From Candidatus Kaiserbacteria bacterium (GTDB lineage: Bacteria; Patescibacteriota; Minisyncoccia; Phycocordibacterales; UBA918), in the NCBI GenBank assembly GCA_016204695.1, contig JACQKD010000014.1, forward strand, positions 88,170 through 152,169: a stretch of DNA of 64,000 nucleotides, in the 5' to 3' direction. A model generated the notes under the pieces. That model saw nothing but the letters and a program-made list of their open reading frames with translations, made no database searches and was not told where the DNA came from. Both the position numbers and the translations under genes were made by a program. Of this stretch, positions 7,831-40,113 are shown piece after piece (the stretch's first letter is position 1; each line of letters opens with the position of its first letter).

Positions 7831-9150
7831 ATGACTCCATTCTCTTTCTCCATTACAAAAAAGCTGTCCGGCAAACTCGGCAGAGTGGGCGTTATCCATA
7901 CGCCGCACGGCGACATCGAGACTCCGGCATTTACCGTTGTCGGCACCAAAGCGACGGTGAAAGCGCTCTCGCCGGAGGACGTACGCGACCTTGTCGGCGC
8001 GCAGGCCGTACTCGTCAACACCTACCATCTCTACCTCCAGCCGGGCGAAGCACTTATCAAAGATGCGGGCGGATTGCACACATTCATGCACTGGGACGGG
8101 CCGACACTCTCCGACTCCGGCGGCTTCCAGGTCTTTTCGCTCGGCGCGGGCCTGGAAGGAAAGGGTGAGAAGCGAATACTTGGAGCTTCGCAAGACTCAT
8201 CGAGGGCTTTTGTGAGGGACGAAACAAAAGACCCGATGAGTGGACAGCGCCGGTACGGCGTCACCAAATTCACCGGCGAGTTCGCGGACTCCTCCGACGA
8301 CATGCGTCCGCGCCTCTATAACAAAGAGATTGCACTCCAGCACGGCAAGCTCTGCATCCTCGACGAAGAAGGCGTGACGTTTACCTCGCATCTCGACGGC
8401 TCGCTTCACCGCTTCACCGCCGAACGTTCGATCGAAATACAGCATGCCATCGGCGCGGACATCATGTTCGCGTTCGACGAGTGCACGTCTCCGACCGCCG
8501 ACTATGTATACCAGAAAGAGGCGCTTGAACGCACGCACCGCTGGGCCAAGCGCTCGATTCTTGCACACAAACGCGACTACAACGCGCTGAAATCGCAAGC
8601 GCTCTACGGCATCGTACAGGGCGGTCGTTTTGAGGACTTGCGAAAGGGGAGCGCGACCGAGCTTGCAAAAATGGATTTCGACGGGTACAGCTTCGGCGGC
8701 GCGTTCTCAAAGGAAGACCTCAAGACGCTTGAATGGGTCAACGCCATCCTACCGGAAGAAAAGCCTCGGCATCTCCTCGGCATCGGCGAACCGGAAGATC
8801 TCTTCATCGGTGTCGAGAACGGCATGGACACCTTTGACTGCGTCCTCCCGACCCGTATCGCCCGCACCGGCACCATCTACACCCATCACGGAAAAGTTAA
8901 TCTACTGCGAACGGAGTACCAGCGCGACCTCGGAAAGCCCGACGACACCTGCGACTGCTACACGTGCACCCACTACACCCGCGCCTACCTCGCCCACCTT
9001 TTCCGCGCAAAAGAAATGCTCGCCGCCCGCCTCGCCTCCATCCACAATCTCCATTTCATCGTCTCCCTCATAAAAAACATCCGTCGCAACATCCTCGACG
9101 ATACCTACCCACAATCCAAAGAAAACTTTTTACGAACGTATCGGGTTTAA
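7831..9150 (+). CDS. tgt: Queuine tRNA-ribosyltransferase with an ~60-aa internal insertion
   Basis: Motifs TPAFTVVGTKATVKAL, NTYHLYLQPG, LSDSGGFQVFSLG, GVTFTSHLDGSLHRFTAERSIEIQHAIGADIMFAFDEC and the zinc site CDCYTCTHYTRAYLAHL. At 439 aa it is longer than the usual ~370-380; the extra segment (~8160-8340) contains repeat copy 1. Confidence 0.9.
   Translation: MTPFSFSITKKLSGKLGRVGVIHTPHGDIETPAFTVVGTKATVKALSPEDVRDLVGAQAVLVNTYHLYLQPGEALIKDAGGLHTFMHWDGPTLSDSGGFQVFSLGAGLEGKGEKRILGASQDSSRAFVRDETKDPMSGQRRYGVTKFTGEFADSSDDMRPRLYNKEIALQHGKLCILDEEGVTFTSHLDGSLHRFTAERSIEIQHAIGADIMFAFDECTSPTADYVYQKEALERTHRWAKRSILAHKRDYNALKSQALYGIVQGGRFEDLRKGSATELAKMDFDGYSFGGAFSKEDLKTLEWVNAILPEEKPRHLLGIGEPEDLFIGVENGMDTFDCVLPTRIARTGTIYTHHGKVNLLRTEYQRDLGKPDDTCDCYTCTHYTRAYLAHLFRAKEMLAARLASIHNLHFIVSLIKNIRRNILDDTYPQSKENFLRTYRV
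8165..8260 (+). repeat. Structured palindromic repeat family, copy 1 (in frame inside tgt)
   Basis: Hairpin A GAAGCGAATACTTGGAGCTTC (8169-8189), long imperfect hairpin B ACTCATCGAGGGCTTTTGT...ACAAAAGACCCGATGAGT (8195-8241), and 3' module CAGCGCCGGTACGGCG (8245-8260). Homologous to 39233-39421, 32383-32505(-) and 34656-34772(-). Confidence 0.75.
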
Positions 9151-9927: not shown

Positions 9928-11967
9928 ATGAGCGGGTTTAAACTCTCTACAAACTACACCCCCGCGGGGGACCAGCCGAAGGCGATTGAGTCGCTTATAA
10001 AAGGCGTCAAGCGCGGCGACCGACACCAGACGCTTCTTGGTGTCACCGGCTCCGGCAAGACGTTCACGGCGGCAAACGTCATCGCGGCCATACAGAAGCC
10101 GACGCTCGTCATCGCACACAACAAGACGCTCGCGGCACAGCTCGCGCAGGAGTACGCGGACTTCTTTCCCGAAAACGACGTGCATTATTTCGTCTCGTAC
10201 TACGACTACTACCAACCCGAGGCGTACATGCCCATTTCGGACACATACATCGAGAAGGAGGCGATGATCAACGAGGAGATCGACCGCCTCCGCCACGCTT
10301 CGACGCAGGCACTTCTCTCGCGAAGCGATGTCATCATCGTCGCATCCGTCTCGTGCATTTACGGCCTCGGCTCGCCGATAGAATATGAAAAAGTGCACAA
10401 GCGCATCGAAGTCGGTACGGTCATCACGCGGCGCGACATGGTGCGCGCGCTCGTGGCATTGTATTTTGAACGTACCAACGCCGACCTTGCGCCCGGCCAC
10501 TTCCGCGCACTCGGCAACACCATAGAAATAATGCCGACAAACGAGCGCGTTATCTACCGGCTCTCCTTCAGCGGAGACGCCGTGGGAAAGATAGAACGCA
10601 TCGACGCGGTCACACGGACAATCATCGCGGAAGTGCCGACATTTTTCCTCTTTCCCGCAAAACATTTCGTGACACCCGAGCTGGAACGCAAGCGCGCCAT
10701 CGCCGACATTACACTCGAGCTCAAAGACCAGCTCGCAAAATTTGAAAAAGAAGGGAAGATTCTCGAAGCCGAGCGCATCAAGCGGCGCACCCAGCACGAC
10801 CTTGCGCTCATACGCGAAATCGGCTATTGCAACGGCATTGAAAACTACTCCCGCCATTTCGACGGCCGCAAGCCGGGGGAAGCGCCGTACACCCTCCTTT
10901 CATACTTCCCGCACAAGCCGGACGGCATGCCGGACTTTTTGACCATTATCGACGAGTCGCACGTCACCATCCCCCAGCTCGGCGGCATGTACGCGGGCGA
11001 CCGCTCGCGCAAGGACACGCTCGTCGAGCACGGATTCCGCCTGCCGAGCGCCGTGGATAACCGGCCGCTGACGTTTGACGAGTTTGAGGAGCGCGTCGGC
11101 GAAACCATCTACACCTCCGCGACGCCCGGCACCTACGAACACGAGCACAGCACGCAAGTCGTCGAGCAGATCATCCGTCCGACCGGACTTGTGGACCCGG
11201 AAATTATTGTGCGTCCGATTGTGAGTCAAGAAGAAAATCAAGGAAAAAATACTGAAGCGTACCCCGGACAAGTACGAGATTTCATCGCTGAAACAGAAAA
11301 GGTAGTAAAAGGCGGCGGCCGCGTGCTCGTCACCACGCTCACGAAAAAAATGGCCGAAGACCTCTCCGAATTCCTCAAGGAGCAAAGCGTGCAAGCCGAA
11401 TACATCCATAGCGAAATCAAGACGCTTGAACGCATCGAAATACTCACCAACTTTCGCAGAGGGAAGTTCGACGTGCTCGTCGGAGTCAACCTGCTCCGAG
11501 AAGGACTCGACCTTCCCGAAGTCGAGCTTGTCGCCATACTCGATGCGGACAAAGAGGGTTTCTTGCGTTCAGAAACATCGCTCATCCAGACCATCGGCCG
11601 CGCCGCACGCAATGTCAACGGCCGCGTCATACTCTACGCCGACGGGATGACCGGCTCGCTTGAAAAAGCCATCGGCGAGACCAACCGTCGCCGCGCCATT
11701 CAAATCGCATACAACACCGAGCACGGCATCACCCCGGCCACCATCAAGAAAGAAATCAAAGACATCACCGAACAGCTCCGTACCGTCCATGAGGAGACCG
11801 TAGACACACTCCTTTCCATCGACCGCGACCTCTACAAGAAGAACCCCAAGAAACTCATCCGCGAAAAGAACCGCCAAATGGCGGAAGCCGTCAAACTCCT
11901 CGACTTCGAAACCGCCGCCATCCTCCGCGACGAGATCAGAGCGCTGGAGGACAGAGGAGGTAGATAG
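9928..11967 (+). CDS. uvrB: Excinuclease ABC subunit B
   Basis: LLGVTGSGKTFTAANVIA (Walker A), YFVSYYDYYQPEAY, helicase motifs, C-terminal UVR domain LDFETAAILRDEIRALE. Confidence 0.95.
   Translation: MSGFKLSTNYTPAGDQPKAIESLIKGVKRGDRHQTLLGVTGSGKTFTAANVIAAIQKPTLVIAHNKTLAAQLAQEYADFFPENDVHYFVSYYDYYQPEAYMPISDTYIEKEAMINEEIDRLRHASTQALLSRSDVIIVASVSCIYGLGSPIEYEKVHKRIEVGTVITRRDMVRALVALYFERTNADLAPGHFRALGNTIEIMPTNERVIYRLSFSGDAVGKIERIDAVTRTIIAEVPTFFLFPAKHFVTPELERKRAIADITLELKDQLAKFEKEGKILEAERIKRRTQHDLALIREIGYCNGIENYSRHFDGRKPGEAPYTLLSYFPHKPDGMPDFLTIIDESHVTIPQLGGMYAGDRSRKDTLVEHGFRLPSAVDNRPLTFDEFEERVGETIYTSATPGTYEHEHSTQVVEQIIRPTGLVDPEIIVRPIVSQEENQGKNTEAYPGQVRDFIAETEKVVKGGGRVLVTTLTKKMAEDLSEFLKEQSVQAEYIHSEIKTLERIEILTNFRRGKFDVLVGVNLLREGLDLPEVELVAILDADKEGFLRSETSLIQTIGRAARNVNGRVILYADGMTGSLEKAIGETNRRRAIQIAYNTEHGITPATIKKEIKDITEQLRTVHEETVDTLLSIDRDLYKKNPKKLIREKNRQMAEAVKLLDFETAAILRDEIRALEDRGGR
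11896..11952 (+). repeat. Direct repeat A (native 3' end of uvrB)
   Basis: CTCGACTTCGAAACCGCCGCCATC... is repeated at 12919-12976 (first 24 nt identical, remainder ~75% identical and AT-richer). Confidence 0.7.
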
Positions 11968-12005: not shown

Positions 12006-12719
12006 ATGACCGATGATGAGATTCGCGAGACGGCAATCGAGTTTGCAAAACGAAACAAAAACCGCATTGCCCGAGAGCTTACCGACAAGACAACGTATGC
12101 GCCGGACACTGCACCGGTTTCCATTTTTATGGCTGGCTCGCCCGGAGCGGGAAAGACGGAATTTTCAAAAGCATTGATAACGCTTTTGGAAGTGCGCACG
12201 GGGCTTCGCGCGGTACGAATCGATAACGATGAGATACGTCCTTTAATTCCCGGATACACCGGAAGTAACTCATACCTATTCCAAGGAGCAACGACGCTCA
12301 TTGTCGAAAAAATGCATGACCTTGCCCTACATAACGGACAAAGTTTTATTATGGACAACACGTTCACGAATTTTGAAAAGGGTACTGATAATATCAGACG
12401 TTCCCTTGGAAAAGAACGCCCGATTTTAATTTTCTACTTGTACCAAAAACCGGAGGTTGCGTGGAGATTTACGCAAGCGCGAGAAGCGACAGAAGGCAGA
12501 AATATCCCGAAAGGGGCATTTATCGAACAATTTTTAGGTGCACGTCATACGGTTGCCAAAATCATCGATAGATTCGGAGACCGAGTCATTGCTTTTCTTG
12601 TCAAGAAAGATTTTGAGAAAAACACCTTGGAAGGCATCTATCGTGTTGTCGAAAGCCAAGAAATTGACCGGTATATACCAGAGGAGTACACTGAAGAGAA
12701 GTTGCAAGAATGCTTATGA
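12006..12719 (+). CDS. Zeta-toxin-family P-loop kinase (zeta/PezT-like)
   Basis: Walker A MAGSPGAGKTEF, RIDNDEIRPLIP, about 230 aa, AT-rich. Confidence 0.65.
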   Translation: MTDDEIRETAIEFAKRNKNRIARELTDKTTYAPDTAPVSIFMAGSPGAGKTEFSKALITLLEVRTGLRAVRIDNDEIRPLIPGYTGSNSYLFQGATTLIVEKMHDLALHNGQSFIMDNTFTNFEKGTDNIRRSLGKERPILIFYLYQKPEVAWRFTQAREATEGRNIPKGAFIEQFLGARHTVAKIIDRFGDRVIAFLVKKDFEKNTLEGIYRVVESQEIDRYIPEEYTEEKLQECL

Positions 12720-12918: not shown

Positions 12919-12987
12919 CTCGACTTCGAAACCGCCGCCATCTTGCGGGATGAGATACGAGCGTTGGAAGAAGGAACGAAAAAGTAG
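12919..12987 (+). repeat. Direct repeat B: displaced duplicate of the uvrB 3' end (pseudo C-terminus ...LDFETAAILRDEIRALEEGTKK*)
   Basis: Homologous to 11896-11967; the pair brackets the zeta cassette. Confidence 0.7.
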
Positions 12988-13002: not shown

Positions 13003-13176
13003 GTGACCAAAGCTACCGTCACAAAAAGACTTACCGGCTTGGAGGCCGAGATTCGGATGCTCAAGACAGCCGTACGTACGCGACCGAATTTCGTCGTGGA
13101 TGACGCAAACTGGAAAAAAATTAAACCTGCTCTAAAGAAAGTGCGCAAACAGGTTTCCAAGCAGACCTATGGCTAA
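13003..13176 (+). CDS. vapB: VapB-like antitoxin (small ORF absent from the track because of its GTG start and <60 aa length)
   Basis: GTG-initiated 57-aa ORF VTKATVTKRLTGLEAEIRMLKTAVRTRPNFVVDDANWKKIKPALKKVRKQVSKQTYG. Its stop overlaps the vapC ATG (ATGGCTAA), indicating translational coupling. Confidence 0.5.
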   Translation: MTKATVTKRLTGLEAEIRMLKTAVRTRPNFVVDDANWKKIKPALKKVRKQVSKQTYG

Positions 13177-13606
13177 GCCAAAGGTTTTTGTAGACTCCAG
13201 TGTCATCATTGCTTCGCTTCTATCCGCAACAGGAGGTAGCGCGTATATTCTCAACAGCTATCACGAAAACTGCGAGTTTCAAACGAATGAGCACGGCTTG
13301 GCGGAAATTCAAAGGGTATTAAAAGATAAATTCGCCGATCAACCGGATTTACAAAACCAACTCTTTCTACTCCTCGGCACGGCTCGGATAGTAATATTAC
13401 TGAATCCTACAAAACGGGAACGAAACATTTGTGCCAAATATATTTCCGAGATAGACGCACCCATTCTCGCCTCGGCAATCAAGCATAGTGACTACTTGCT
13501 CACTCTTGATAACGAATTTTTAGGAAAGAGTGTGGCAGAAATCGCTCGAAAGAATTCTCTAACCATCCTAAAACCAAAAGATTTTATAGAACAATTCGAA
13601 ACATAA
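13169..13606 (+). CDS. vapC: PIN-domain toxin (VapC family)
   Basis: VFVDSSVIIASL (N-terminal catalytic Asp), DAPILASAI, LLTLDNEF. Confidence 0.8.
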   Translation: MAKPKVFVDSSVIIASLLSATGGSAYILNSYHENCEFQTNEHGLAEIQRVLKDKFADQPDLQNQLFLLLGTARIVILLNPTKRERNICAKYISEIDAPILASAIKHSDYLLTLDNEFLGKSVAEIARKNSLTILKPKDFIEQFET

Positions 13607-20047: not shown

Positions 20048-20075
20048 AGTGGACCCGAGGGGATTCGATCCTTAC
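20048..20075 (-). repeat. Degenerate duplicate of the tRNA-Ala(CGC) 3' end (integration scar)
   Basis: Reverse complement reads ...GTAAGGATCGAATCCCCTCGGGTCCA; the last 20 nt are identical to the 3' end of tRNA-Ala(CGC) 140 bp away. Confidence 0.6.
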
Positions 20076-20212
20076 AGGATCAGTATACCTTGCGGATACT
20101 TTTCTTCTCCGCCAGCCGGCGGATCGAAAAGATATCTCGCAAGGTCTGCGAACCCCCTGTATCCTACAAAAACATAGTCGCGTGACGCTTCGCGTCCCGC
20201 TCCTTGTTTTTG

Positions 20213-20284
20213 TGGACCCGAGGGGATTCGCACCCCTGACCCCTGCAATGCGAATGCAGTGCTCTACTCCTGAGCTACGGGCCC
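20213..20284 (-). tRNA. tRNA-Ala (anticodon CGC)
   Basis: GGGCCCG TA GCTC AGGAGTA GAGC A CTGCA TTCGCAT TGCAG GGGTC AGGGG TGCGAAT CCCCT CGGGTCC A; G3:U70 present. Confidence 0.9.
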
Positions 20285-21199: not shown

Positions 21200-21272
21200 G
21201 GGCCCCTAGCTCATCTGGTAGAGCACCGGTTTTGCACTCCGGAGGCGAGCGGTTCGAGTCCGCTGGGGTCCA
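21200..21272 (+). tRNA. tRNA-Ala (anticodon TGC)
   Basis: GGGCCCC TA GCTC ATCTGGT AGAGC A CCGGT TTTGCAC TCCGG AGGCG AGCGG TTCGAGT CCGCT GGGGTCC A; G3:U70. Confidence 0.9.
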
Positions 21273-21292
21273 CATACGGTGTAGGATGTAGG

Positions 21293-23015
21293 GGTATCCG
21301 CTTAAGGCGGGACAATTGGGTGTCGGTCATGTACGCTGAAGGACTGAATTCCACCACGAGTTCAGTCACCCTTCAGAGGACCGACCGACATGAAATTTTG
21401 GGCCAAAAGTCTTCGCATTGTCAACGCTTTTTGTGACAACGCCGCGCAGAGCATCCGACACGTGGCGCATCAGACCGGGTTCTCCAAGAGCAGTGTGCAT
21501 CGCCTCAAACAGGCGATGGAACGCCGAGACCGCCACCCAGAGTCGTGGTTGTGGGAAACGGAAGAAGGCCACCGTTGGCTCCTCCGTCTGGTGGTCGCCG
21601 CCCTTTTTACGTTCGGTCTCACACGCGGTGTCGGGGCGGAAACCCTCAGCGAGTTTTTTGGCCGTCTGCGCCTCGAGGCACATATCGGGTCTTCGCCCAG
21701 CGCCTTGCGGAGGATGATGGAGGCGTTGGAGGCCGTGCTTCTGGAGACGGCAGGAACATGGGAGCACGAGGGGGTAGCTGCCGGAGAGATCAGACCAATC
21801 ATCGGCGCGGTGGACGAAACCTTCTTGGAACGCATGATGCTGGTGTTCATGGACCTTGCCAGTGGCTACTTGGTGGCTGAAGAGGTTGCCGCGGATCGGA
21901 GTTATGACACCTGGTACGCTGTGGTCACGGCACGCCTGGCGACGCTGGGGGTTGGTGTGAGGTACATGGTGAGTGACCGGGCCAAGGCACTGATCAAACT
22001 GGCGGACACGGGGCTGGCGTGCTTGAGCGTCCCGGACTTCTTCCACCTTCTCCATGACCTGACCAAGAGCTATTCGCTGGCCATTGTCAGTCGGCTGAGG
22101 CACGCGCAGCAGGCCTTGCAGCACGCGCAGGAGCGTCTTGCCGCGTGCCAAGAGGCTCATCCAGACGGTGCGGACGTGCAACACGTGCACGCCTTGGTGG
22201 AGGTGCATGAAGCGGAAGTCCAGCGCTGGCAAAACGTGCACAGTGACTACCGGCACCACCTCGAGCACCTGTCGCTCATCATGCATCCATGGCGCTTAGG
22301 AGGCTCGACACCCCAGACGTCACACGAAGTGGAAGACCTCTTACAGACAGAGATCGCGGCCCTGGAAACCTTGGTCGCAACGCAGGGGGTGCCCATCAAG
22401 AAGCACGCCTTGGAGAAGGTCCGCAAGCAGCTCGCGGGCGTCGCCGCCCTGGTGGACGTGTGGTGGCAGGAGGTGTGGCACGATGTGCAGTCTCAGGTTG
22501 CCCTGACGTCGCAGTGGCGGGGCTGGGTTGCAGAGTGTGTGCTGCCGCTCATGTATTGGCAGGAACAACTGGCGCGCACGCGTTGCCCACGACGCAAAGC
22601 CAAGCTCTTCGAGGCGTTGCAGACGGTTGAGGAGGCCATGGAAACGCATCCCCTCACCCGCCAGTTGGCCCCCGAGGTCCTGGCGGGGTGGAAAGTCTGG
22701 GCGGCCGAGCATGCCAGAGGCTTTCAGCGGGCCTCCTCGGCGGTTGAAGGGCGCAACGGTGCGCTGCCGCAGTTGCACCACAACCAGCGCGGCTTGCCCA
22801 AACGCCGCTACAAGGTGTGGACGGTGTTGCACAACTTCGACTGTCGTGCCGCGGACGGGAGCACGCCCGCCTCACGGTTTTTCCGGCACGAATTTCCGGA
22901 CCTCTTTGAGACGGTGCTCTCAAAAATCGATGACGTACCACGATCTCGTCAACGCCACCAGGCTCTGGCGATAAGTATTTGAAGCTATAGAATGTCCCGC
23001 TTTAAGCGGATACCC
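21293..23015 (+). mobile_element. Insertion sequence, ISL3-family-like (1.72 kb, single transposase, 22-bp terminal inverted repeats, 9-bp target-site duplication GGATGTAGG)
   Basis: IR-L GGTATCCGCTTAAGGCGGGACA (21293-21314) matches the reverse complement of IR-R (22993-23015) with one mismatch. Flanking direct repeat GGATGTAGG at 21284-21292 and 23016-23024. GC content is higher than surrounding DNA. Confidence 0.75.
21390..22982 (+). CDS. DDE transposase (ISL3-like)
   Basis: N-terminal HTH; catalytic-region signatures AVDETF...MDL, MVSDRAKAL...VPDFFHLLHDL (DrFHv-like) and AVEGRNGALPQLHHNQRGL (EGxN...RG). Confidence 0.7.
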   Translation: MKFWAKSLRIVNAFCDNAAQSIRHVAHQTGFSKSSVHRLKQAMERRDRHPESWLWETEEGHRWLLRLVVAALFTFGLTRGVGAETLSEFFGRLRLEAHIGSSPSALRRMMEALEAVLLETAGTWEHEGVAAGEIRPIIGAVDETFLERMMLVFMDLASGYLVAEEVAADRSYDTWYAVVTARLATLGVGVRYMVSDRAKALIKLADTGLACLSVPDFFHLLHDLTKSYSLAIVSRLRHAQQALQHAQERLAACQEAHPDGADVQHVHALVEVHEAEVQRWQNVHSDYRHHLEHLSLIMHPWRLGGSTPQTSHEVEDLLQTEIAALETLVATQGVPIKKHALEKVRKQLAGVAALVDVWWQEVWHDVQSQVALTSQWRGWVAECVLPLMYWQEQLARTRCPRRKAKLFEALQTVEEAMETHPLTRQLAPEVLAGWKVWAAEHARGFQRASSAVEGRNGALPQLHHNQRGLPKRRYKVWTVLHNFDCRAADGSTPASRFFRHEFPDLFETVLSKIDDVPRSRQRHQALAISI

Positions 23016-23267: not shown

Positions 23268-23312
23268 ATTGCGGGAGAGAAATAAGAGGCAGAGCAGGGA
23301 GAAAATGAAAGA

Positions 23313-23347
23313 GAGAAGCCGTCAGAATAAATCTCTGACGGCTTCTC
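23313..23347 (+). terminator. Terminator hairpin (14-bp stem, T-rich tail)
   Basis: GAGAAGCCGTCAGA / ATAAATC / TCTGACGGCTTCTC then TCTTTTCTC. Core GCCGTCAGA..TCTGACGGC is shared with the hairpin at 24963-24993. Confidence 0.6.
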
Positions 23348-24962: not shown

Positions 24963-24993
24963 AAAGCCGTCAGAACAAGTTTCTGACGGCTTT
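24963..24993. terminator. Bidirectional hairpin between convergent SIR2-like and MazF-like genes
   Basis: AAAGCCGTCAGAA / CAAGT / TTCTGACGGCTTT overlaps the last codons of the minus-strand toxin. A GC hairpin CCCCC GCAA GGGGG sits at 24934-24953. Confidence 0.5.
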
Positions 24994-25353
24994 TCTCAAT
25001 TCTGCGAATATTTCCTTGTCGAGAAAACCGACCTTTTCGACCAAACGCCGCGTATCGATCACTCGAAGTTGTGAGAGGAGCGCTTTCGCCTCCTTGTCTT
25101 GAACTATCCCCACAGAGATACGGAGTCGATGGGGATGCGGAGAGGTGGTTAGCGGGATAACCGCACAGGTTTCTGCTCCAAACGAGCGTATGATCACCAC
25201 CGGCCGAAGAAATGATTTACCGCTCCCGTCCTGTTCCGATCCGACATTCACGCCGAGTCGACACCACCATATTTCGCGAACCGTATAGAGACGAGATTCT
25301 TCACCATGGGTCTGCTTTTTCAGCGTATTCCACGTATCGAAATCTTTTGTCAT
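24970..25353 (-). CDS. MazF/PemK-family endoribonuclease toxin (type II TA), no adjacent canonical antitoxin
   Basis: REIWWCRLGVNVGSEQDGSGKSFLRPVVIIR...CAVIPLTTSPHP...IDTRRLVEKVGFLDKEIFAELRKAV aligns motif-for-motif with the MazF/NdoA family (GSEQxG, RPxxVI, xPxTT, IDxxRL). Confidence 0.75.
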   Translation of the reverse strand: MTKDFDTWNTLKKQTHGEESRLYTVREIWWCRLGVNVGSEQDGSGKSFLRPVVIIRSFGAETCAVIPLTTSPHPHRLRISVGIVQDKEAKALLSQLRVIDTRRLVEKVGFLDKEIFAELRKAVRNLF

Positions 25354-25402: not shown

Positions 25403-25549
25403 TTATCGAGAGGGGAGTGTAGGGTGTAGGTTGGTGTAGGACTTTTTCTCTAACAGCTTCTGGACGGGTGCCAGAAAATCCTTGTTTTCCGCCACAGCGG
25501 TTCGAACGTCGTCCAATAAGGCCCACAACTGTAGAAAATCCCGTCTCAT
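25403..25549 (-). CDS. Possible 48-aa ORF upstream of the MazF-like toxin (speculative antitoxin candidate; overlaps repeat site 3)
   Basis: ATG at the centre of the 42-nt palindrome encodes MRRDFLQLWALLDDVRTAVAENKDFLAPVQKLLEKKSYTNLHPTLPSR; ends 49 nt before the toxin start. Confidence 0.2.
   Translation of the reverse strand: MRRDFLQLWALLDDVRTAVAENKDFLAPVQKLLEKKSYTNLHPTLPSR
25417..25442 (+). repeat. 24-bp (TGTAGG)x3-type site, copy 3
   Basis: GTGTAGGGTGTAGGTTGGTGTAGGAC. Confidence 0.55.
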
Positions 25550-25570
25550 ATGAGACGGGATTTTCTACAG
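25529..25570. promoter_or_regulatory. Perfect 42-nt palindrome (21-nt arms, no spacer); operator or bidirectional terminator candidate
   Basis: CTGTAGAAAATCCCGTCTCATA|TGAGACGGGATTTTCTACAG. Confidence 0.5.
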
Positions 25571-25697
25571 TTGAAGGGGAGTTCGGAACGGACTCGAAGC
25601 TGTTGCGAGCTAGACTATGAGCGAAGCGAAATAGTATAGCCGCAACGGAGGAGTCGATTACCGCACCCGGGACAGGTCTGTTAAAATGGCAACCTGT

Positions 25698-32382: not shown

Positions 32383-32505
32383 TTAGTGACTCGGGCCGAC
32401 TCCCTACGGGAGCAGTACACCTTGCGGCTCTTTTGCTTCGGCGTACGCCTCGCAAAACAGCTCGCAAGATCTTGAGGAAGCTCCAAGTATTCGCTTCCTC
32501 AACCT
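32383..32505 (-). repeat. Structured palindromic repeat family, copy 3 (intergenic, between the two tRNA-Pro genes)
   Basis: Hairpin A extended to a 10-bp stem (TTGAGGAAGC / TCCAAGTATTC / GCTTCCTCAA on the + strand); hairpin B ATCTTGCGAGCTGTTTTGCG...GCAAAAGAGCCGCAAGGT. Confidence 0.65.
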
Positions 32506-32658
32506 AGTAGCCCGACCGCAGGGAGGAATACCTCGTCGGGGCGTAAGTAAAACTTGCCCCGACTGCGCTCGGAGGAAATAAATGCTAGCATTTATTCGCT
32601 CCTCACTGGTCGTGGTAGTACAGTGGCAATATACACGCTTTGGGGTTCTTCACATTGT

Positions 32659-32729
32659 CGGGGCGTAGTACAGTGGCAGTATACACGCTTCGGGTGCGTG
32701 AGACCCGAGTTCGATTCTCGGCGCCCCGA
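32659..32729 (+). tRNA. tRNA-Pro (anticodon CGG)
   Basis: CGGGGCG TA GTAC AGTGGCA GTAT A CACGC TTCGGGT GCGTG AGAC CCGAG TTCGATT CTCGG CGCCCCG A. Flanked by an 11-nt inverted repeat CTTCACATTGT/ACAATGTGAAG. Confidence 0.85.
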
Positions 32730-32790
32730 CAATGTGAAGAACCGAGTGTCTGGGAGACACTCGTGGCTCCGTAGATGGTAATCATAGTAT

Positions 32791-34655: not shown

Positions 34656-34772
34656 GATGCACGCTCCGTACAGAAACCTCACACCCATTCATTAGATCTT
34701 TTGTTTCGACGTCCGTCTTACAAAAGCTCTCAATGGGTCTCGTGGAAGCTCCACGTATTCGCTTCCTCACAC
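34656..34772 (-). repeat. Structured palindromic repeat family, copy 4 (immediately 3' of tRNA-Val)
   Basis: Reverse complement: GAGGAAGCGAATACGTGGAGCTTCC..., then hairpin ACCCATTGAGAGCTTTTGT...ACAAAAGATCTAATGAATGGGT. Carries compensatory base changes relative to copy 1. Confidence 0.7.
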
Positions 34773-34782
34773 TTCGCTCGTG

Positions 34783-34856
34783 TGCACTCTGGAAGATTCG
34801 AACTTCCGACCTCGCCCGTGTGAAGGGCGCGCTCTAGCCAACTGAGCTAAGAGTGC
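34783..34856 (-). tRNA. tRNA-Val (anticodon CAC)
   Basis: GCACTCT TA GCTC AGTTGGCTA GAGC G CGCCC TTCACAC GGGCG AGGTC GGAAG TTCGAAT CTTCC AGAGTGC A. Confidence 0.85.
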
Positions 34857-38382: not shown

Positions 38383-40113
38383 ATGCCTTTGCGACTTGAG
38401 CGGCTCCTCCCATACGCGCTTCCCGTATTGCTCGTCATGCTCTATATCATCCTGCTCTCCGGCGGTATCAATCTCGTGACCGCCGACCTCGGCAGGCATA
38501 TCGCGAACGGCCGGCTTTTCCTCGAGACGTGGCAGACGATAGACACCAACACCTATTCCTACACGCATCCGGACTTCCCGGTCGCCAATCATCACTGGCT
38601 CTCCGGCGTCCTTTTCTATCTCACGTTCATTGTCGGAGGATTCGCGGGAACACACCTCATGTTCATCCTCGTGAGCGCCGCGGCATTTCTCATTTTTTTC
38701 CGTATCGCATGGAAAAAGGGCGGACTTCCGCTTGCGAGTGTCTTCGCACTCCTCCTCTTGCCCATCATCGCCGAGCGCACCGAAGTCCGGCCCGAGGCAT
38801 TCAGCTATCTGCTCGCGGGCGTATATTTCTTTCTGCTCCTTAGGCATCGCGAAGGGCGACTCTCTGCGAAAGCGCTTGCGATAACACTCGGCATTCTGCA
38901 AGTCCTCTGGGTCAATCTCCATATCTATTTTTTCGTCGGCTGGGTATTGGTCGGAACATTCCTGCTTGAAGACATCGTCATGCGCGGCAGGCGGCACGCA
39001 TCAACCAAAACGCTCGCGCTCTGTTTCGGCATCGTGCTTGCCGCAGTATTCGTCAATCCGTTTACGCTCGAAGGCGCGCTCGCGCCGTTTACCATTTTCA
39101 ATGAATACGGCTATCGGCTCGTCGAGAACCAGTCGGTGTGGTTCCTCCGGAGCATACTCAACCGTCCAAACCTGCTTTATTTTGAAATCGTTTCAGCCGC
39201 GCTCGTCGGAAGTTTCATACTCGTCTTCATCCGTGAGAAGCGAATACTTGGAGCTTCGCAAGAGGTTGTCGACAGTTTCGACCGAATGGTGAGAAGCCGT
39301 GGGACGGCTTCGCAAGACCTTTTGAGATATTTCCGAAGCGAAGCGAACGGAAATAGCCAAAAGGTATACAGTTCCTGTAAGGAAGAAACTGTCATACAAC
39401 CTGAACAGCGCCGGTACGGCGAGAACATACGTATTGTGGAGCTAATTTTAGGTCTCGGATTCGGCGTGGCCGCGGCGCTCGCCCTGCGCAACTTCACCAT
39501 CTTCGGCCTTTTCGCACTACCGCTCTTCGCCGAAAATGTCGCACACGCATTTCCATCCATAAAAACGTCCGCTTCGCGAACCGCCGAGTGGATGCTCGCC
39601 GGAGTTATCGCCGTCATCGTCCTTTTGTTCGTCACCGGCGAGATGCGCAAGGCGTATGCGTATCCGCCGCACGCACTCGGCCTCTTGCCGGGCAACGAGC
39701 GCTCTGCGGAATTTTTTCTCGCGCACGATCTCAAGGGACCGATATTCAACAACTACGACATCGGCGGGTATCTCATCCACTACCTCTATCCGCACGAACG
39801 TGTGTTCGTCGACAACCGCCCCGAAGCATACCCTGCGGAATTTTTCCGGAACGTATATATTCCGATGCAGGAAAATGAAACTGTCTGGAACGAACAGGAC
39901 GCAACGCATCACTTCAACACCATCTTCTTCTCGTACCATGACTACACGCCGTGGGCTCAGCAATTTTTGGTCGCACGGATCAACGACCCCGACTGGGCGC
40001 CGGTGTACGCCGACAATTTCGTCATCATTTTTCTCAAGCGGAACGAGCAAAATACTGCTATCATCAGTGAGTTTGAAATCCCGCGCGAGCGGTTCAGGAT
40101 GACGCCGTCATGA
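38383..40113 (+). CDS. Large polytopic membrane protein (GT-C-like glycosyltransferase candidate) carrying an in-frame repeat insertion
   Basis: About twelve TM helices. A cytoplasmic-loop segment at 39233-39421 is repeat copy 2. Confidence 0.5.
   Translation: MPLRLERLLPYALPVLLVMLYIILLSGGINLVTADLGRHIANGRLFLETWQTIDTNTYSYTHPDFPVANHHWLSGVLFYLTFIVGGFAGTHLMFILVSAAAFLIFFRIAWKKGGLPLASVFALLLLPIIAERTEVRPEAFSYLLAGVYFFLLLRHREGRLSAKALAITLGILQVLWVNLHIYFFVGWVLVGTFLLEDIVMRGRRHASTKTLALCFGIVLAAVFVNPFTLEGALAPFTIFNEYGYRLVENQSVWFLRSILNRPNLLYFEIVSAALVGSFILVFIREKRILGASQEVVDSFDRMVRSRGTASQDLLRYFRSEANGNSQKVYSSCKEETVIQPEQRRYGENIRIVELILGLGFGVAAALALRNFTIFGLFALPLFAENVAHAFPSIKTSASRTAEWMLAGVIAVIVLLFVTGEMRKAYAYPPHALGLLPGNERSAEFFLAHDLKGPIFNNYDIGGYLIHYLYPHERVFVDNRPEAYPAEFFRNVYIPMQENETVWNEQDATHHFNTIFFSYHDYTPWAQQFLVARINDPDWAPVYADNFVIIFLKRNEQNTAIISEFEIPRERFRMTPS
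39233..39421 (+). repeat. Structured palindromic repeat family, copy 2 (composite, in frame inside the membrane protein gene)
   Basis: GTGAGAAGCGAATACTTGGAGCTTCGCAAGA (31 nt identical to copy 1), internal partial duplication GAGAAGCCGTGGGACGGCTTCGCAAGAC, hairpin CCTTTTGAGATATTTCCG...CGGAAATAGCCAAAAGG, and 3' module CAGCGCCGGTACGGCG. Confidence 0.75.

Follow-up and report, generated by a model that had tools for sequence, protein, structure and literature searches.

A three-hairpin repeat family of Patescibacteria with in-frame copies in three genes of a Candidatus Kaiserbacteria genome

Repeats that lie within bacterial genes without breaking the reading frame have been documented above all as Rickettsia palindromic elements (RPEs), and also as enterobacterial repetitive intergenic consensus (ERIC) sequences and others (PMC10969869; for RPEs, Ogata et al., 2000, 2002, as summarized therein). 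Here we describe a family of repeats of about 95 nt in a 64-kb stretch of a Candidatus Kaiserbacteria genome (contig JACQKD010000014.1, positions 88,170 to 152,169; the whole of this stretch is called the window). The window contains seven full copies and one partial copy, and three of its genes, namely those for queuine tRNA-ribosyltransferase (TGT; gene tgt), for a protein with a Gmad2 domain and for a polytopic membrane protein, carry copies in frame. We consider it likely that these belong to a family of small, non-autonomous, dispersed repeats of Patescibacteria, whose coding copies are survivors of a filter on frame, stop codons and site, and are translated together with their hosts. The initial annotation, made from the letters of the window, had reported in-frame insertions in tgt and in the membrane-protein gene; both stand, and a third, in the Gmad2 gene, had been overlooked.

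As summarized in the source cited above, RPEs are short (about 100-150 nt), dispersed, hairpin-forming repeats of a small genome; many of the copies are found within unrelated genes, in frame, with a recurring peptide for each family; and, within that summary, no transposase is identified and the orthologues of relatives lack the insert. The Kaiserbacteria repeat shares all of these features. It differs in that its host is unrelated (Patescibacteria), in that it is built of three hairpins with conserved joints and not as one long palindrome, and in that it spans many candidate lineages and not a single genus. Furthermore, the sampled copies of the Kaiserbacteria repeat appear to be mostly intergenic, and one of the coding copies would be translated in antisense. 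RPE-like behaviour in an unrelated genome, as first suggested, is thus borne out by in-frame copies in three unrelated genes, by a recurring peptide and by empty orthologues. The likeness appears to be one of behaviour only: no relationship to RPEs has been established, and membership is not claimed.

The anatomy of the repeat, on the other hand, matches that of repetitive extragenic palindromic (REP) sequences and their composites (bacterial interspersed mosaic elements) with REP-associated tyrosine transposases (RAYTs), and of palindrome-associated elements derived from IS200/IS605 insertion sequences. The REP hairpin follows the short motif GTAG; here a hairpin follows the conserved motif GTG(AG). 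As in that group, terminal inverted repeats are lacking, the coding inserts have no clear target duplication, one strand pairs better than the other, and copies may be clustered or in tandem. However, the enzyme that defines the group was not found among the window open reading frames (ORFs) or beside the copies, with no Y1 (HUH) transposase among the ORFs scanned against Pfam; the repeat has three distinct hairpins with a long conserved middle helix; and its tRNA-linked copies carry duplications of 19-25 nt. ERIC, BOX and Correia elements are marked by terminal inverted repeats or a modular box structure, and Correia elements by TA duplications; such ends, boxes and duplications were not seen in the Kaiserbacteria repeat. 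With these elements the repeat nevertheless shares a similar size (about 100-150 nt in that group), a multi-copy nature, conservation across related genera and, as we propose here, transcription together with its neighbours, and occasional intragenic copies with open frames are documented in that group too (PMC10969869). Terminal inverted repeats, which mark a classical miniature inverted-repeat transposable element, are absent from the repeat. Finally, three of the copies lie between an intact tRNA gene and a repeat of its 3' part, which is the classic attL/attR picture of tRNA-targeting elements mobilized by tyrosine integrases. Unlike in those elements, only about 150-450 nt without an ORF lie between the repeats, no integrase was found within or near the tRNA-linked inserts, and the coding copies lack a repeat of the tRNA type.

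Genomes of the candidate phyla radiation (CPR, or Patescibacteria) are tiny and tightly packed, and to our knowledge few repeat families have been described in them. The present family appears to be undescribed so far: full-text literature searches returned no description of the family or of its sequence, and four copies searched against Rfam 15 gave no match at the gathering score, or at E-values up to 1-10.

Copies were identified with two covariance models, R1 and R2, the latter of which was built from copies in foreign genomes only. The window copies have covariance-model E-values of 1e-9 to 1e-27 and are all re-detected by R2, at 46-101 bits, with weaker values in both respects for the partial copy G. 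The copies and their host genes are as follows.

979-2079, + strand: gene for a Gmad2 immunoglobulin-like domain protein of 366 aa (Pfam Gmad2, E 3e-13), host of copy B
1889-1985, - strand: copy B, antisense and in frame in the Gmad2 ORF (R1 86.5 bits, R2 92.8 bits)
7831-9150, + strand: tgt, queuine tRNA-ribosyltransferase, an intact ORF of 439 aa (Pfam TGT, E 2.6e-133, the match being split around the insert), host of copy A
8164-8260, + strand: copy A, sense and in frame in tgt (R1 106 bits, R2 101 bits)
20066-20169, - strand: copy F, a variant with a decayed first hairpin, beside tRNA-Ala(cgc) (R1 43 bits, R2 46 bits)
about 25575-25650, + strand: partial copy G, the long hairpin only (R1 24.6 bits, E 5.6e-5; R2 26.7 bits)
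32400-32504, - strand: copy C, intergenic between tRNA-Pro(ggg) and tRNA-Pro(cgg) and antisense to both (R1 104.5 bits)
34663-34772, - strand: copy D, beginning 10 nt past the 3' end of tRNA-Val(cac) on the same strand (34782-34856, -) (R1 78 bits)
38383-40113, + strand: gene for a polytopic membrane protein of 576 aa, an intact ORF, host of the two copies E
39233-39421, + strand: copy E-outer, sense and in frame in the membrane-protein gene, 189 nt including the nested copy
39288-39385, + strand: copy E-inner, a complete element nested in E-outer (R1 76.8 bits, R2 86.1 bits)

In tgt and in the membrane-protein gene, the repeat is on the coding strand, where it starts with GGTGAGAAGCGAATACTTGGAGCTTCGCAAGA and ends with CAGCGCCGGTACGGCG. 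A 21-mer of its first hairpin, GAAGCGAATACTTGGAGCTTC, occurs four times in the window, against an expectation of 0.01. As had been stated at the outset, both of these ORFs remain open through the repeat, and both read from it the peptides EKRILGASQ and QRRYG.

The product of tgt is 100% identical to a Kaiserbacteria Tgt recorded at NCBI, and copy A is translated in it as GEKRILGASQDSSRAFVRDETKDPMSGQRRYG. From 11 TGT orthologues (76-85% identity), exactly a 31-residue segment, GEKRILGASQDSSRAFVRDETKDPMSGQRRY, is missing. The empty site was read as DNA in two of them, one of which has the conserved gene order PGA_cap, FKBP, TGT, UvrB: the empty sites are GGA AAG GGA GTG ACC and GGG AAG GGC GTG ACA, and the filled site of the window is GGA AAG GGT GAG ... 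CGG TAC GGC GTC ACC. The gene has gained 93 nt net, and the phase of the insert is ambiguous by at most 4 nt (8164-8256 through 8168-8260). The initial annotation had attributed some 60 extra residues of this TGT to the repeat, which is correct only in part. Relative to the TGT of Zymomonas mobilis, residues 107-177 (about 71) of the window protein replace 4 residues; the repeat accounts for only 31-32 of these, and the other 40 or so are a loop expansion common to all close orthologues. The insert appears, from the alignment of TGT sequences, to be located in a connection of variable length; the initial annotation had expected a surface loop. An AlphaFold2 model of the protein (from an alignment of 18 sequences) had a mean predicted local distance difference test (pLDDT) score of 64, with residues 63-193 all below 50, which is too low for the insert to be positioned in the structure.

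A second site was found in two more distant TGTs. The TGT genes of L101 and L102, from Joint Genome Institute (JGI) and Logan assemblies, contain an in-frame element confirmed by the model at 75 and 68 bits. Both copies are sense and in the same element frame as copy A, although the site is about seven codons downstream of that of copy A; they encode related peptides (GASARL...SGQRRY). In L102 the net addition is again 93 nt. The differences between the L101 and L102 copies in the first, second and third hairpins (P1, P2 and P3) are compensatory.

In the Gmad2 gene, copy B lies antisense to its host and is still in frame, being read as SYRCCPLTGLFASLLSQKFSVSLAEASHASS, with a net insert of 93 nt. 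Ten orthologues of the Gmad2 protein, the closest of which is 72% identical, all lack the segment, and the empty site was read as DNA in L105. When this empty target is compared with the 3' end of an A-type element, 14 of 15 bases match and 11 of these matches are exact, a result that was reached by 8 of 5000 shuffles. A target duplication of 9-10 nt at copy B was entertained and set aside, as it is incoherent with copy A; the site is better read as a target that resembles the 3' end of the element.

The membrane protein had no match in Pfam. Almost all of its 150 homologues align with it as two blocks that skip residues 290-346 or thereabouts, and the segment is missing from an orthologue with 73% identity. 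The empty site was observed in L107, where the gene is upstream of a gene for a family 2 glycosyltransferase at the orthologous locus. The 39233-39421 stretch was originally taken for a single repeat copy, but alignment, folding and the covariance model resolve it into two elements. E-inner (39288-39385) sits in the apical loop of the long hairpin (P2) of E-outer, which R1 and R2 find as two separate halves, and this long hairpin of E-outer is a variant that is also present in L038, another Kaiserbacteria genome.

For all three genes, therefore, the close orthologues (72-85% identity, with the same gene order) lack the segments at the protein and the DNA level, and the segments are insertions and not old parts of the proteins. 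They share both nucleotide sequence and structure with the intergenic copies. Mobility of the family is suggested by these empty orthologous sites.

Alignment and folding of the copies gave a fold of three hairpins on one strand, and not the single palindromic element that had been supposed. In P1, GAAGC pairs with GCUUC across a loop; P2 is long, carries a conserved GAG bulge and has a loop of the type GAG...CGAA; and P3 is a stem of 5 bp with a GUA triloop. The single strands that join them (GUGAG, GCAAGA and UGGACAG) are also conserved. Folding z-scores range from -3.4 to -6.3 (-4.1 for copy A). Among six window copies, 15 of the 28 pairs have changed on both sides and 88% of cells are paired, compared with 39-49% when the partners are slid; in 65 distinct copies from foreign genomes, the corresponding figures are 26 of 27 pairs and 92%, compared with 45-52%. 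The core stems contain 28 G.U and 9 A.C pairs, so that pairing is better on one strand. The last base pairs of P3 were considered as a contribution of the host, which was judged unlikely since these pairs are 95-98% paired across the 65 copies.

The fold bears on how the repeat is read in genes. In the sense orientation, conserved UGA triplets stop two of the three frames, and the single frame left open explains why different genes encode the same peptide; in antisense, two of the three frames are usually open. All four coding copies keep the frame and contain no stop. For every coding copy that can be measured cleanly (A, B and the one in the TGT gene of L102), the added length is 93 nt, which is divisible by three as had been predicted, with an ambiguity at the junctions of 2-4 nt. 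Across the family, lengths are mostly 93-97 nt, and 93, 94, 95, 96 and 97 all occur. As the family thus includes lengths that are not divisible by three, the restriction to multiples of three within genes looks like a filter of survival.

We would explain these observations as follows. Copies would spread to new sites, mostly between genes, often by tRNA genes and sometimes inside or beside another copy. A copy that enters a gene would persist only if its length is a multiple of three, if the frame that it meets has no stop and if the site is a tolerant loop. The surviving coding copies would then be transcribed and translated with the host gene, to which they would add about 31 residues. We favour such a dispersed selfish repeat over an RNA that functions in cis because the orientation of copies with respect to neighbouring ORFs is random (24 same and 23 opposite on the 5' side, 27 and 25 on the 3' side), because no neighbour recurs, because nested, tandem and truncated copies exist, and because relatives have empty sites and, in one of them, a syntenic stretch of 21 kb that contains no copy.

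The family extends well beyond the window. When one genome per species was scanned for an exact pattern, 100 stretches were returned, from which R1 confirmed 68 copies at E < 1e-3; these are in metagenome-assembled genomes labelled Paceibacterota, Kaiserbacteria, Vogelbacteria, Nomurabacteria, Parcubacteria, Patescibacteria or "Saccharibacteria", or in unclassified bins. R1 did not confirm any pattern match from another phylum. Foreign copies score up to 107 bits, and thus the sequence is conserved as well as the fold. Most copies elsewhere appear to be intergenic and often adjoin tRNA genes; some are tandem or nested, with head-to-tail arrays at L060 and L017, and truncated copies are also present. 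A profile of the peptide encoded by the element (padded with X) found no candidates in a set of 5.8 billion proteins. A viral source was considered and rejected, as the exact pattern gave one stretch in IMG/VR that the covariance model did not confirm. A short variant, in which P2 has shrunk to a small hairpin (a unit of about 81 nt), occurs at L060:612-975 and L017:7502-7684, head to tail with the long form and with zero spacer. In two different genomes (L007:7852-7992 and L015:167-313) half an element, comprising P1 and the 5' strand of P2, lies directly against the 3' end of an opposite-strand tRNA-Ile(gat), with a similar junction, GTACCGAAC.

Three of the copies that are linked to tRNA genes share a layout. 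Copy F has tRNA-Ala(cgc) on one side and, on the other, a 19-nt direct repeat of the 3' portion of that gene, from the T-loop to just past the discriminator base (20212-20230 and 20049-20067). The insert there is about 145 nt, and consists of a spacer module and copy F; the spacer module is conserved between F and L035. The same arrangement was found with a tRNA-Leu in L035:3471-3720 (21 nt) and with a tRNA-Ile in L060:580-1090 (25 nt, where the insert is a tandem array of at least three units). These flanking repeats look like the duplication of an att site or a long target duplication. Such duplications of 19-25 nt were found only at F, L035 and L060, and the coding copies A, B and E are without them.

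Copy C is linked to tRNA genes in another way. In L050, another Kaiserbacteria genome, a family member lies between the same two tRNA-Pro genes as copy C; its stem sequences differ and still pair. In the window, the 5' half of tRNA-Pro(cgg) is repeated over 30 nt, with 93% identity, at 32615-32644, 50 nt upstream of that gene, and a perfect pairing of 22 bp (32644-32665 with 32722-32743) joins the leader and 5' acceptor strand of tRNA-Pro(cgg) with its 3' acceptor strand and trailer.

How, then, does the repeat move? Neither end of the element is the reverse complement of the other, P1 and P3 being separate local hairpins, and a consistent target duplication is lacking in the coding inserts. 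In about four-fifths of the aligned copies (counted by eye), P1 is preceded by GTG(AG). For A, B and the copy in L102, the 93 bases gained can be taken to run from AG(G)AAGC through the end of P3, with the preceding GGTG supplied by the host; other phasings of the junctions are possible. The empty sites in tgt and in the TGT gene of L102 share 4-5 bases with the ends of the element. Given the absence of inverted ends and of a consistent duplication, the 5' GTG, the subterminal hairpins and the better pairing of one strand, the mechanism that we favour is one of the IS200/IS605 or REP-RAYT type, in which a single strand would be transposed by an enzyme whose gene lies elsewhere. The likeness of the Gmad2 target to the element, together with the tRNA duplications, could mean that targets are chosen by their similarity to the end of the element, or that part of the family uses an integrase-like or copy-in route.

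Several observations weigh against the selfish, read-through repeat that we propose, or against parts of it. The duplications of tRNA 3' parts are not predicted by single-strand transposition. With regard to the enzyme, a Pfam scan of about 50 window ORFs found no Y1 transposase, integrase or reverse transcriptase, and the neighbours of 74 copies included no recurring protein family and no recurring mobilizing enzyme. The exact boundaries are ambiguous by 2-4 nt. The net insert at the copies E is 180 nt and not 2 x 93, which implies that the loop has been altered further since insertion. Translation of the inserts is something that we infer from the open frames. Finally, loops and helices are conserved across many genomes, at scores of more than 100 bits, to a greater degree than decaying junk would show, and this conservation could reflect an RNA or single-stranded DNA with a function. 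Constraint on a folded strand would, however, also be expected if the mobilizing enzyme recognizes the fold.

Apart from one unrelated insertion sequence, the window ORFs scanned against Pfam showed only housekeeping and toxin-antitoxin genes. This apparent insertion sequence (21292-23015), the sole one seen in the window, lies just after tRNA-Ala(tgc) (21200-21273) and has 23-bp inverted ends that are 96% complementary (GGGTATCCGCTTAAGGCGGGACA) and unrelated to the repeat. It contains an ORF of 530 aa (21390-22982), which has an HTH_IclR domain at the N terminus and DUF6399 at the C terminus.

A related and bolder explanation is that the element represents a new class of mobile structured nucleic acid in CPR, the folded strand of which, as single-stranded DNA or RNA, joins in its own targeting. 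The 14 of 15 matching bases at the Gmad2 site, the 4-5 bases shared with element ends, the tRNA sites that reach into the T-loop, and the conserved loops and helices are compatible with this, and would fit a choice of target by homology or base pairing, or a copy-in route via RNA. As it stands, we regard this explanation as rather unlikely.

It is also unlikely, in our judgement, that the element is mainly a functional structured RNA, such as a small RNA or a module that is bound by protein or processed by a nuclease, which is maintained by selection and whose genic copies are tolerated or serve as useful signals in mRNA. The very strong covariation and the conservation of loops across many genomes of Patescibacteria are what such an RNA would show; the excess of G.U over A.C pairs implies that a single strand is folded; the family member between the same pair of tRNA-Pro genes in two Kaiserbacteria genomes has kept its pairing while its stems diverged; and the compensating changes in P1, P2 and P3 of the L101 and L102 copies point the same way. 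However, the orientation to neighbouring genes is random, no gene association recurs, and copy B is antisense to the mRNA of its host. The nested, tandem and truncated copies, the three coding sites that are empty in close relatives, and the copy-free syntenic stretch of 21 kb also argue against such an RNA.

We think it very improbable that the inserts are tiny intervening sequences that are removed from the mRNA, by themselves or by an enzyme of the host, so that the extra residues never appear in the proteins. The 5' GUGAG does loosely resemble the 5' consensus of group II introns, the RNA would be highly structured with conserved unpaired bases, and a copy nested in the apical loop of another is reminiscent of a twintron. 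Nevertheless, no Rfam intron or ribozyme family matched even at the permissive E-values given above; the four coding copies are in frame and free of stops, which would be needless if they were removed from the RNA; copy B, being antisense, could not fold as the same RNA; and lengths outside genes are not multiples of three. At about 95 nt, the element is also far shorter than any self-splicing intron known to us. The motifs CGAAAC and GAUGAG, which recall a hammerhead ribozyme, were examined and rejected, since their bases are in covarying helices, their order is wrong and there is no match in Rfam.

That the in-frame copies are assembly artefacts, or chimeras induced by repeats in a metagenome-assembled genome, is hardly credible: the exact TGT protein is recorded from a single contig and repeats are a classic cause of misjoins, but on either side of every copy the host gene runs on in an unchanged frame, 72-85% identical to its orthologues, the gene order around tgt matches that of three other assemblies, and the family members found in frame in TGT genes of two assemblies made independently, by JGI and Logan, make misassembly, which the initial annotation had itself raised, unlikely.

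If the selfish, read-through repeat is accepted, this family would be a further clear case, after Rickettsia, of selfish DNA that adds to proteins, and its hosts include a conserved tRNA-modification enzyme. Some of the odd lineage-specific insertions in CPR proteins, and some spurious ORFs that are called over repeats in CPR genomes, could stem from it. The covariance model can be used at once to mask copies or to take a census of them, and the three-hairpin fold, the tRNA-linked copies and the self-like target make the means of spread a workable question.

Other insertions and repeats were seen alongside the family. The TGT orthologues P0055 and P0034 and the membrane-protein homologues P0170, P0179 and P0183 have other lineage-specific insertions of 20-60 residues, in the same or in other loops, some of which may be other repeat families translated in frame. 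A perfect palindrome of 48 nt (25526-25573) adjoins partial copy G. A second hairpin family (AAGCCGTCAGAA...TTCTGACGGCTT) occurs twice, at 23311-23344 and 24964-24997, around the region of a PemK/MazF toxin gene (24970-25353, - strand). Finally, downstream of tgt, a 53-nt stretch near the 3' end of ORF 9928-11967 (11899-11951), which is probably uvrB from the gene order in L102 and L103, is repeated with 85% identity at 12919-12971, just downstream of a zeta-toxin gene (12006-12719). This suggests that the end of the gene was duplicated when a toxin cassette was inserted; a gene with a PIN domain (13169-13606) follows.

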